The notes beneath the pieces were generated by a model. The model saw nothing but the letters and a program-made list of their open reading frames with translations, searched no databases and was not told the DNA's origin. A program made the position numbers and the translations under genes. DNA of 64,000 nucleotides from Escherichia coli. GTDB taxonomy: Bacteria; Pseudomonadota; Gammaproteobacteria; Enterobacterales; Enterobacteriaceae. Positions 40,863-43,553 of the stretch are shown piece by piece (position 1 is the stretch's first letter; the number at the start of each line of letters is the position of its first letter). The DNA lies in assembly GCF_003334405.1 (NCBI RefSeq), contig NZ_QOWM01000002.1. One strand, written 5' to 3'.

Positions 40863-41587
40863 GTAAAAGCCGCTTAACGGTGTTTAGTTTCGTTCGCCGT
40901 TTTCTTTTGCGGTTAATGGTTGTCCTCGCCGTTTTCTGGGGCGGGGGCATCGCGTTGTTTAGCGTTGCGCCTGTTCCCTTCTCAGCGGTAATGGTCGAGC
41001 GACAGGTCAGCGCCTGGCTGCATGGCAATTTTCGTTACGTGGCACATTCTGACTGGGTCAGTATGGATCAAATCTCGCCGTGGATGGGACTGGCGGTGAT
41101 TGCCGCAGAAGATCAGAAATTTCCTGAGCACTGGGGCTTTGATGTCGCTTCCATTGAGAAAGCCCTGGCGCACAACGAGCGCAATGAAAACCGTATTCGC
41201 GGTGCTTCAACGATTTCTCAACAGACAGCCAAAAATCTCTTTTTATGGGATGGGCGTAGCTGGGTTCGAAAAGGGCTGGAAGCCGGATTAACGCTGGGGA
41301 TAGAAACGGTCTGGAGCAAAAAGCGTATCCTGACGGTTTACCTGAATATCGCCGAATTTGGCGACGGTGTGTTTGGCGTCGAAGCTGCGGCACAACGTTA
41401 TTTCCACAAACCCGCGAGCAAACTTACCCGGTCGGAAGCTGCATTACTGGCAGCTGTATTACCTAATCCACTTCGTTTCAAAGTCTCCTCGCCATCGGGC
41501 TACGTGCGTAGCCGTCAGGCGTGGATTTTACGGCAGATGTATCAGTTAGGCGGTGAGCCGTTTATGCAACAACACCAGCTGGATTAA
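40859..41587 (+). CDS. mtgA: Monofunctional biosynthetic peptidoglycan transglycosylase
   Basis: 242 aa with N-terminal TM and GT51 motifs (…[13 protein letters not shown]…). Confidence 0.93.
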
Positions 41588-42216
41588 GCTTCGCGCGAAG
41601 TGAGGGCCAGCGTTTTGCTCTCACGAGGTTGCAGATCTTTCTGCAGGGCAATAGCCAGCGCCGGTTGGGCGATAAATCGTTTCCATAACCGCTCTTGCTT
41701 ACGCAGACAACACCACTTCGACCAGGTCGCCAGTGGAATCAATGTGCTTTCACCAATGTTGTCGCAGACGACCGGGATAACCTCTGACTCACTGATGCGG
41801 TGACAGAGGATATTCTGCGGCTTCAGCGACATCGTCACGATACGGTTATCCTGCAAATAACGCTTCAGCTGTTTCAGTAGCTGGCGCAGTTGTGCAATGT
41901 CTTCTTCGTAACGGCATTGTTCAGCAAATTCGGTCAGCGTAATGGAAGGCTTGCCGTCAAAATCTGCAATCACATCGTAGACATAACCGGTTCCGCAATC
42001 CGTCTCAACGGTACCGTGATAGCGCGGTATTCCACTCCAGTCTTTTAACCGGCGACCAAGATGCGCGTAGTACTTTAACTCACGGCGGATCTCTTTATCG
42101 CCACCATCGCCACGATGGTAGACAATCTTGATACAGCGTTGGGCATCTTCCGGATGCGCATAACATTTCCGATGTCTTCCGGTGCCCAGGGGACTTTGTT
42201 CAGATAAGCGAATCAT
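41584..42216 (-). CDS. yrbL: PhoP-regulated protein YrbL
   Basis: 210 aa [24 protein letters not shown]...; start moved to internal ATG; stop overlaps mtgA stop. Confidence 0.85.
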
Positions 42217-42266
42217 GCCATCTCCTGGAAATATTTTCTGACGATCTCCAGTATGGTCGATTAACT

Positions 42267-42283
42267 TAAACAAAACCTAAACA
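42267..42283. promoter_or_regulatory. PhoP box (direct repeat TGTTTA-N5-TGTTTA on minus strand) upstream of yrbL
   Basis: Minus-strand TGTTTAGGTTTTGTTTA about 50 bp upstream of the yrbL start. Confidence 0.7.
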
Positions 42284-42429
42284 ATGCCTCTTAAGGTTTT
42301 CTTAAGGTTCTTCTGAAAGTGAAAAGCGCACAAAATGTACAAATGACGTTGATTGAGAACGATTTCAGTACGTGATTTTCTTATTGTCGGGGGGAGTTTG
42401 AAGGGAGTTGTATGTCAAAGTGATGAAGA

Positions 42430-42702
42430 TTAATCTTCATCAAAACCAGAATTAAAGAGGGCGATAACGGCGGCCAGTGCTTCCTCTTCCTGTGGACCGG
42501 TCGCTTCAACTTCAATCTGCCGTCCTTTGGCAGAATCCAACATCAGCAGCGCAATAACGCTGTTGGCTTCAGCCTCGGTGCCTTCGTCATTACGTAAGAG
42601 CACTTCAGCGTCAAAACCCTGCATTAATTCAAACAGCTTCATTGCAGGCCGGGCATGCATGCCCAGCTTGTTTGTGATTTCAACAGTTTGCTTGACGGTC
42701 AT
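42430..42702 (-). CDS. ptsO: Nitrogen-related phosphocarrier protein NPr
   Basis: 90 aa HPr-like protein. Confidence 0.93.
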
Positions 42703-43553
42703 GGTTTACGTTTTTCCAGCGTACGATGGCGTGACTGGACGTTTTTACCGCGCGAGCGGAAGTAGTCTGCCAGTTGCTCTGCAATATACACCGAACGGTG
42801 CTTCCCGCCGGTACAACCAATGGCGACCGTCAAGTAGCTACGGTTGTTGGTTTCCAGCATAGGTAACCATAGCTCAAGATAGCTTCGCGTCTGGTAGATA
42901 AAATTGTGTACTTCTGTGTGGCGGTCGAGGAACGCGGCGACAGGTTTATCAAGACCTGTCATTGGACGCAGTTTCGGATCCCAGTGCGGGTTCGGCAAGA
43001 AGCGCACGTCAAAGACGTAATCTGCATCGATAGGGATACCGTGTTTGAAGCCGAAAGACTCAAAGACCATGGTCAGTTCGCGTTCACGTTTACCCAGCAG
43101 ACGGGTACGCAGCATTTCAGCCAGCTCGTGAACGGACATTTCTGAGGTATCGACAATCAGATCCGCTCGCGAACGCAGAGGCTCCAGCAAATCGCTTTCT
43201 TTGTCGATAGCACTTTCCAGCGACAGGTTTTTGCTGGAAAGCGGATGCAGTCGGCGCGTGTCACTGTAACGACGAATTAAGGTATTACGGTCGGCATCCA
43301 GGAACAGGAGTTGCGGTGAGAAAGCGTCAGGCAGGTTACTCATCGCCTGTTCGAATATTTCTGGTGACTCCGGCATATTACGAACATCAATGCTGACGGC
43401 GGCAGAAATCTCGCGATCGGCCAGGGTTCGAGCCAGATCGGGTAACAACACTACGGGAAGGTTATCCACGCAGTAAAAACCCATATCTTCCAGCGCACGC
43501 AGGGCGACAGATTTACCTGAACCTGAACGTCCGCTGACGATCATCAGTACCAT
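42699..43553 (-). CDS. rapZ: RNase adaptor protein RapZ (YhbJ)
   Basis: 284 aa, Walker A GRSGSGKS at N-terminus. Confidence 0.93.

Follow-up and report, generated by a model that had tools for sequence, protein, structure and literature searches.

The window analysed here is a stretch of Escherichia coli DNA of 64,000 nucleotides in which yrbL lies among elbB, mtgA, npr, rapZ, ptsN, hpf and rpoN, a set of neighbours for which the earlier description as an otherwise housekeeping region is a fair one. yrbL occupies positions 41584..42216 on the minus strand and codes for 210 amino acids (RefSeq annotation of identical E. coli DNA), and RefSeq names its product 'PhoP regulatory network protein YrbL'. 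The protein belongs to Pfam family PF10707 (YrbL-PhoP_reg), which has a kinase-like fold and is found in all of the homologues. YrbL itself gives a faint protein-kinase signal, its K-12 annotation reads 'protein kinase-like domain-containing protein YrbL', and a kinome survey places the PF10707 family among the protein-kinase-like families. No phenotype has been reported for deletion of yrbL in PhoQ/PhoP feedback, in osmotic recovery (PMC5740661), or in Shigella invasion (PMC5775216).

yrbL (minus strand, ending at 41584) is convergent with mtgA (plus strand, ending at 41587), with a 4-bp overlap of the two genes at the stop codons; their transcripts must therefore overlap. On the other side of yrbL, a perfect hairpin with an 8-bp stem – GATGAAGA-TTAA-TCTTCATC, at 42422-42441 – spans the stop codon of npr and is not followed by a T-run; in other species, Citrobacter amalonaticus being one example, a distinct hairpin or terminator comes behind npr. 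An Rfam scan of the region for structured RNA (E<=1) returned only a below-threshold and meaningless snoRNA match.

Upstream of yrbL, on its coding (minus) strand, is a perfect direct repeat, TGTTTA-GGTTT-TGTTTA (TGTTTAGGTTTTGTTTA, the reverse complement of 42267..42283), with a distal half-site at 42283..42278 and a proximal half-site at 42272..42267. The first-pass annotation had described this repeat, with its 5-bp spacing, as a PhoP box, and its coordinates and strand proved exact; the distance to the start codon, given there as about 50 bp, is exactly 50 nt (42217..42266, with the ATG at 42216). A pattern search for the exact form TGTTTA-N5-TGTTTA finds one match on the two strands of the 64-kb window, where 0.0068 matches are expected analytically from base composition, and no match was seen in any of 100 dinucleotide-preserving shuffles. 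The degenerate form KGTTTA-N5-KGTTTA is expected approximately twice per 4.6-Mb genome, and with up to two mismatches to it (<=2) the window contains 15 matches versus 13.7 expected; relaxed matches are thus at chance level, and only the exact site stands out.

Eleven nucleotides (AGTTAATCGAC) separate the box from a −10 hexamer, CATACT (42250..42255, minus strand), which agrees with TATAAT at four of six positions, A2 and T6 among them. A consensus scan of 41500-42800 turned up no sigma-70 promoter that has a −35 of its own, which is how a promoter dependent on an activator should look, and the PhoP box takes the place of the −35. Box and gene share the minus strand, with the box upstream of the gene and in direct orientation. 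These are the features of the PhoP-activated promoter class known as architecture I: two (T/G)GTTTA hexamers arranged as a direct repeat with a 5-nt spacer, located 11-12 nt upstream of the −10, with both box and spacing kept in orthologous promoters.

The position of the −10, together with S1 mapping in Salmonella (PMC3335776) transferred by alignment, predicts that transcription of E. coli yrbL starts at approximately 42248-42243 on the minus strand. On the same strand there are about 23 nt from CATACT to the Shine-Dalgarno sequence AGGAG (42222..42226), which lies 5 nt before the ATG. A mechanical list of open reading frames begins yrbL at a TTG inside the box (42273, giving a 229-aa reading frame), which we regard as an artefact; the annotated ATG at 42216 has AGGAG in front of it. 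Several methylation sites are also present in this segment. A Dam site (GATC, 42243-42246) falls at the predicted transcription start, and the start codon of yrbL lies between two Dcm sites (CCWGG), one at 42224-42228 overlapping the Shine-Dalgarno sequence and the other at 42186-42190; in an E. coli dcm deletion, yrbL is among the five most significantly up-regulated genes (PMC11741368).

For PhoP binding, for the dependence of yrbL expression on PhoP and Mg2+, and for repression by PmrA we draw on published work. Zwir et al. 2012 (PMC3335776) analysed yrbL among other promoters, and derived PhoP box submotifs from DNase I footprinting in Salmonella; Salmonella yrbL heads their list of architecture I PhoP-activated promoters, with a single canonical box (TCGTTTAGGTTTTGTTTAA) in direct orientation and 11 nt from CATACT (Tables 1-2 of that study). 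A single S1 start was seen, and only in the wild type at low Mg2+ (10 µM), with none in a phoP mutant, and the authors predict class II activation for yrbL, as shown for mgtA. The Salmonella 5′ leader is 32 nt long and the distance from the −10 to +1 is 2 nt; this distance is unusually short, and there may be a small error in the assigned −10 or in the mapped start. yrbL has also been described as the earliest PhoP target to be transcribed in Salmonella (PMC4196223).

In Shigella flexneri the predicted yrbL site (tTGTTTAggtttTGTTTAa) is identical to the box in the window, PhoP-P shifts the yrbL promoter fragment in an electrophoretic mobility shift assay (EMSA), and deletion of phoPQ gives yrbL expression ratios of 0.02 by microarray and 0.07 by qRT-PCR – a fall of approximately 50-fold, and no other gene of unknown function is reduced as strongly in the mutant (PMC5775216). 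In E. coli, expression of a yrbL reporter climbs with optogenetically controlled PhoP, with a low dynamic range and as the least dose-responsive (PMC13215669), and osmotic upshift induces yrbL through PhoQ/PhoP (PMC5740661). The first-pass annotation had proposed that the box ties yrbL to Mg2+/PhoPQ control, naming PhoP ChIP or EMSA data and low-Mg2+ induction of a reporter as ways to check this and the lack of any PhoP-dependent change in yrbL expression as the result that would count against it. The proposal is well supported by the promoter layout, by conservation and by the published PhoP dependence: the EMSA exists, for an identical Shigella sequence; low-Mg2+ and PhoP-dependent expression are documented by the Salmonella S1 mapping and the PhoP-responsive E. 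coli reporter; and the test for the adverse result has been made, with the opposite outcome.

The 213-bp npr-yrbL intergenic region of the window is 100% identical to that of K-12 MG1655 (NC_000913.3, 3348239-3348451), with the PhoP box corresponding to 3348385-3348401, and published K-12 work therefore applies directly to the window sequence. A 1.3-kb stretch around the box matches all 5426 complete E. coli genomes with 95-100% identity, and the intergenic region is found in 5423 of the 5426. In other lineages of E. coli the common alleles include TGTTTA-GGTTT-CGTTTA and TGTTTA-GATTT-CGTTTA (seen on alignment of strains elppa4, AVS0662 and Ecol_AZ161 to 42200-42400), and the box of Escherichia sp. 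MOD1-EC7003 is CGTTGA-GGTTT-CGTTTA. Because of these other E. coli alleles, and of the CATTTA and TATTTA proximal half-sites that occur in other genera, the perfect TGTTTA/TGTTTA repeat is to be seen as the K-12-type allele and not as a requirement for function. In strain Ecol_AZ161 (NZ_CP019012.1, 2839979-2840270) homology to the yrbL promoter ends inside the −10 (CATAC|GTAAGCG...), where an IS66-family tnpA adjoins the break and the promoter is severed from yrbL; yrbL is also split in strain E1654, where it is annotated as 'YrbL family protein'.

Conservation of the promoter was followed at two sets of loci. A genome scan yielded 11 full-length loci from other Escherichia, Citrobacter and Salmonella plus one 420-bp fragment, and protein homologues led to a further 10 loci, in Salmonella, Siccibacter, Pluralibacter, Erwinia sp., Cedecea and Superficieibacter, at an Enterobacter hormaechei paralogue, and at three others (GCA_951660265.1, whose yrbL promoter closely resembles those of Salmonella; a metagenome scaffold; and a gut-metagenome locus beside dnaE). 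A 420-bp contig that carries the label Tannerella forsythia ATCC 43037 (NZ_JUET01000135.1) shares 99% identity with yrbL and the yrbL leader of E. coli, and its presence in a Bacteroidota assembly almost certainly reflects E. coli contamination.

An alignment of 12 Escherichia, Citrobacter and Salmonella sequences over the 184 nt that precede the ATG shows islands of conservation, with a majority identity of 1.00 for the −10, 0.95 for a PmrA box that lies beside the PhoP box (see below), and 0.89 for the PhoP box (0.90 and 0.89 for its two half-sites), against 0.54-0.69 for the spacers and the sequence far upstream. The PhoP box is free of gaps and the positions of its GTTTA / TTTA core are invariant, although the box as a whole has nine invariant positions of 17 versus 14 of 17 in the PmrA box. 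CATACT is invariant in 12/12 of the aligned sequences, and its 11-nt distance from the PhoP box recurs in nearly all of the promoters sampled, and in all genomes whose promoter module can be recognised. Escherichia, Citrobacter, Salmonella, Siccibacter and Superficieibacter share one rigid layout, which consists of the PmrA box, 5-7 bp (mostly 6), the PhoP box, 11 bp, CATACT, 33-36 bp, and the ATG. Distal half-sites take the forms TGTTTA, CGTTTA and CGTTGA, and proximal half-sites TGTTTA, CGTTTA, CATTTA and TATTTA, variation that, judged from the sequences, stays within the tolerance of the PhoP consensus. Anatomy, uniqueness, identity to K-12 and conservation are direct observations of this study, and the sequences also show purifying selection on the PhoP box, the PmrA box, and their spacing.

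More distant loci depart from this layout in different ways. Pluralibacter, Erwinia sp. and Cedecea combine a degenerate PhoP box with a persisting PmrA box, the latter in flipped orientation in Erwinia sp. and Cedecea. The E. hormaechei paralogue of yrbL (GCA_030868155.1) lies outside the npr-mtgA context, and keeps the PhoP box and a 20-bp block located further upstream (discussed below), with a decayed PmrA box. About 280 bp upstream of this paralogue is a tRNA gene (positions 248-324 of the extracted locus, L024) whose TTA anticodon would decode the stop codon UAA (ARAGORN 'tRNA-Stop'; Rfam tRNA, 50 bits). A human gut metagenome contig (ERZ920441) has distant YrbL homologues (~50% identity) as a convergent pair beside dnaE and a Kdo-kinase-like gene, and the sequence upstream of them lacks a PhoP box, a PmrA box and the 20-bp block; with this one distant locus examined, the promoter module appears to be confined to the closer enterobacterial homologues sampled.

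The PmrA/BasR box in the window, CTTAAG-GTTTT-CTTAAG, is located at 42290-42306 (about 3348362-3348378 in K-12) on the plus strand, opposite to yrbL, and lies upstream of the PhoP box at a distance of 6 bp. It is the sole exact match to this sequence in the window, and is contained within two 10-bp units (TCTTAAGGTT) at 42289-42298 and 42300-42309 that repeat with an 11-bp period. Its tandem half-sites (YTTAAK) with a 5-bp spacer are those of a PmrA/BasR box, for which the published definition is CTTAAG-N5-xTTAAT (PMC3973317). PmrA has been reported to repress yrbL (PMC3335776, PMC2681069, PMC4196223), with repression of the E. coli promoter given in PMC3335776 by reference to Zwir 2005, and in E. 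coli as well as Salmonella the PhoP and PmrA sites in the yrbL promoter are described as approximately 24 bp apart (PMC2681069); in the window the centres of the two boxes are separated by 23 bp. An EcoCyc-derived table gives the regulators of yrbL as 'BasR, PhoP' (PMC4145685). Moreover, E. coli B adapted to iron(III) shows up-regulation of basR, eptA and arn, with yrbL one of its most down-regulated genes (PMC13405929), as repression by BasR predicts. yrbL therefore has a two-input promoter, with a PhoP box and an adjacent PmrA/BasR box, and is not a pure PhoP target; the first-pass picture of control by PhoP holds, but it was incomplete, having missed both the PmrA/BasR box and the 20-bp block.

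We conclude, with a probability of roughly 0.97, that PhoP binds the E. coli yrbL promoter at 42267..42283, and no sequence evidence was encountered against this assignment. By this mechanism, PhoQ responds to low Mg2+, cationic peptides or osmotic upshift by phosphorylating PhoP, a dimer of which then occupies both TGTTTA hexamers head-to-tail. The hexamers substitute for the absent −35 and precede the weak −10 CATACT by 11 nt, one helical turn. PhoP so placed would recruit RNA polymerase in the class II, architecture I manner and give rise to a yrbL mRNA with a short leader of about 31 nt; that PhoP acts here as a class II activator in contact with RNA polymerase is presumed by analogy with mgtA. 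A PmrA/BasR dimer on the adjacent inverted CTTAAG-N5-CTTAAG, 6 bp upstream, damps this activation, and from its position at about −65 to −45 relative to the predicted start it would presumably interfere either with PhoP or with the alpha subunit of the polymerase. Activation by PhoP combined with damping by PmrA/BasR makes yrbL PhoP-activated and PmrA/BasR-repressed.

Three other accounts of the site deserve consideration. In one, the promoter is controlled mainly by PmrA/BasR, as part of the circuit for iron and lipid A modification, with the PhoP box being secondary or lineage-specific. The greater invariance of the PmrA box in the alignment is in keeping with this, as are its survival – in either orientation – beyond the degenerate PhoP box in Pluralibacter, Erwinia sp. 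and Cedecea, and the position of yrbL among the most down-regulated genes when BasSR is activated in iron-adapted E. coli B. However, PmrA is reported as a repressor of yrbL and not as an activator, transcription is abolished in the Salmonella phoP mutant and reduced 50-fold in the Shigella phoPQ deletion, and it is the PhoP box, not the PmrA box, that holds the −35 position; the Enterobacter paralogue, moreover, has retained its PhoP box and let its PmrA box decay. We consider a mainly PmrA-controlled promoter very improbable.

It is more improbable still that the repeat matches the PhoP consensus by chance, in an AT-rich spacer and with no regulatory role. The expectation of about two degenerate K-forms per E. 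coli genome and the chance-level number of relaxed matches in the window are the points in its favour; but the exact form, expected about 0.007 times, is present once, in the correct orientation and 11 nt from a −10, its spacing is fixed across genera in which the spacers themselves diverge, and PhoP binding and PhoP dependence have been published (PMC3335776, PMC13215669, PMC5775216). Equally hard to credit is the notion that the site serves another OmpR-family regulator, or a plus-strand transcript antisense to npr, since, although tandem hexamers with an 11-bp period are common in the OmpR family and the PmrA box faces the plus strand, the hexamers are the exact PhoP consensus, the published EMSA used PhoP-P (PMC5775216), the plus strand has neither a promoter-like −10/−35 nor a conserved RNA, and the sequence between the boxes and npr is unconserved. 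A plus-strand promoter driven specifically by the PmrA box was considered and rejected as well, since a −10 at class II distance and a conserved −35 are both lacking and the sequence downstream is not conserved.

The PhoP-activated promoter proposed for yrbL can be compared with several that are well characterized. The closest is the orthologous Salmonella enterica promoter (PMC3335776), which has the same architecture I layout as the window; its distal half-site is CGTTTA rather than TGTTTA, so that it is the K-12 allele that forms a perfect repeat, some of the sampled Salmonella genomes have TATTTA as the proximal half-site, and the transcription start is mapped in Salmonella and predicted in the window. 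The mgtA and phoP promoters of E. coli and Salmonella resemble that of yrbL in having a direct (T/G)GTTTA-N5-(T/G)GTTTA repeat that overlaps the −35, one turn from the −10, and in being activated by low Mg2+, but the distance from box to −10 is 12 nt in mgtA and phoP and 11 nt in yrbL. mgtA further differs in its long regulatory leader of 264 nt, in contrast to the short leader and PmrA box of yrbL, and the phoP promoter, unlike that of yrbL, has a second, PhoP-independent start. The pmrD promoter – the 'bi-fan' partner of yrbL – shares both a PhoP box at the −35 and an upstream PmrA box for repression by PmrA, although the two boxes are approximately 38 bp apart in pmrD and approximately 23-24 bp apart in yrbL (PMC2681069). 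The 20-bp block upstream of yrbL likewise distinguishes the two, as the K-12 pmrD promoter contains no copy of it.

This block is situated at 42323-42342 (3348326-3348345 in K-12), where the yrbL strand reads TTGTACATTTTGTGCGCTTT; it is upstream of the PmrA box, with 16 bp between the two, and lies at about −80 to −100 from the predicted start. Its consensus on the yrbL strand is TTGTACATTTnGTGCkCTTT, and 18 of its 20 positions are invariant among the 12 Escherichia, Citrobacter and Salmonella sequences, compared with a majority identity of 0.54-0.61 in its flanks; in the same 12 aligned promoters it is better conserved than the PhoP box. It is also present in Siccibacter (TTCTACATTTTGTGCGCTCT), Superficieibacter and Pluralibacter (GTAC-N5-GTGCTCTTT), and upstream of the Enterobacter paralogue at another locus. 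The start-to-start distance from the block to the PhoP box is 58-60 nt wherever both could be located, the PhoP box of Pluralibacter being too degenerate to place. In C. amalonaticus the block lies downstream of a clear npr terminator, and it is thus part of the yrbL upstream region rather than of the 3′ end of npr. It is asymmetric, is present as a single copy in the window, and has no match in Rfam.

Various identities were considered for the block. An element shared with the pmrD promoter is excluded by its absence from that promoter in K-12, and a small open reading frame beginning at its TTG meets an early stop in E. whittamii. A comparison by eye with the consensus sequences of known binding motifs yielded no convincing candidate: an RstA box fits in its first half and fails in its second, OmpR and CpxR sites have the wrong period, a marbox agrees at 10 of 14 positions but would be too far upstream, the sigma-54 −24/−12 elements need GG where the block has TG, and MlrA finds one half-site only; the Fis core (G..YA.....TR..C) does fit, but this motif is too degenerate to inform. 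The literature that was found names BasR and PhoP alone as regulators of yrbL, and none for the block. We tentatively suggest that the block either binds a third regulator or acts as an upstream promoter element, a suggestion to which we give somewhat less than an even chance.

The PhoP box of yrbL is already known in full, down to the product name of the gene, and for approximately 20 years yrbL has counted as a reference member of the PhoP regulon in E. coli, Shigella and Salmonella. The box is of use as a positive control: a validated regulator site was recovered from raw sequence with its coordinates, strand and spacing right. The 20-bp block is the only residue of novelty at this locus, and may well be documented elsewhere; if it should prove to be the site of a third regulator, then the 'simple' yrbL promoter would be a three-input integrator.
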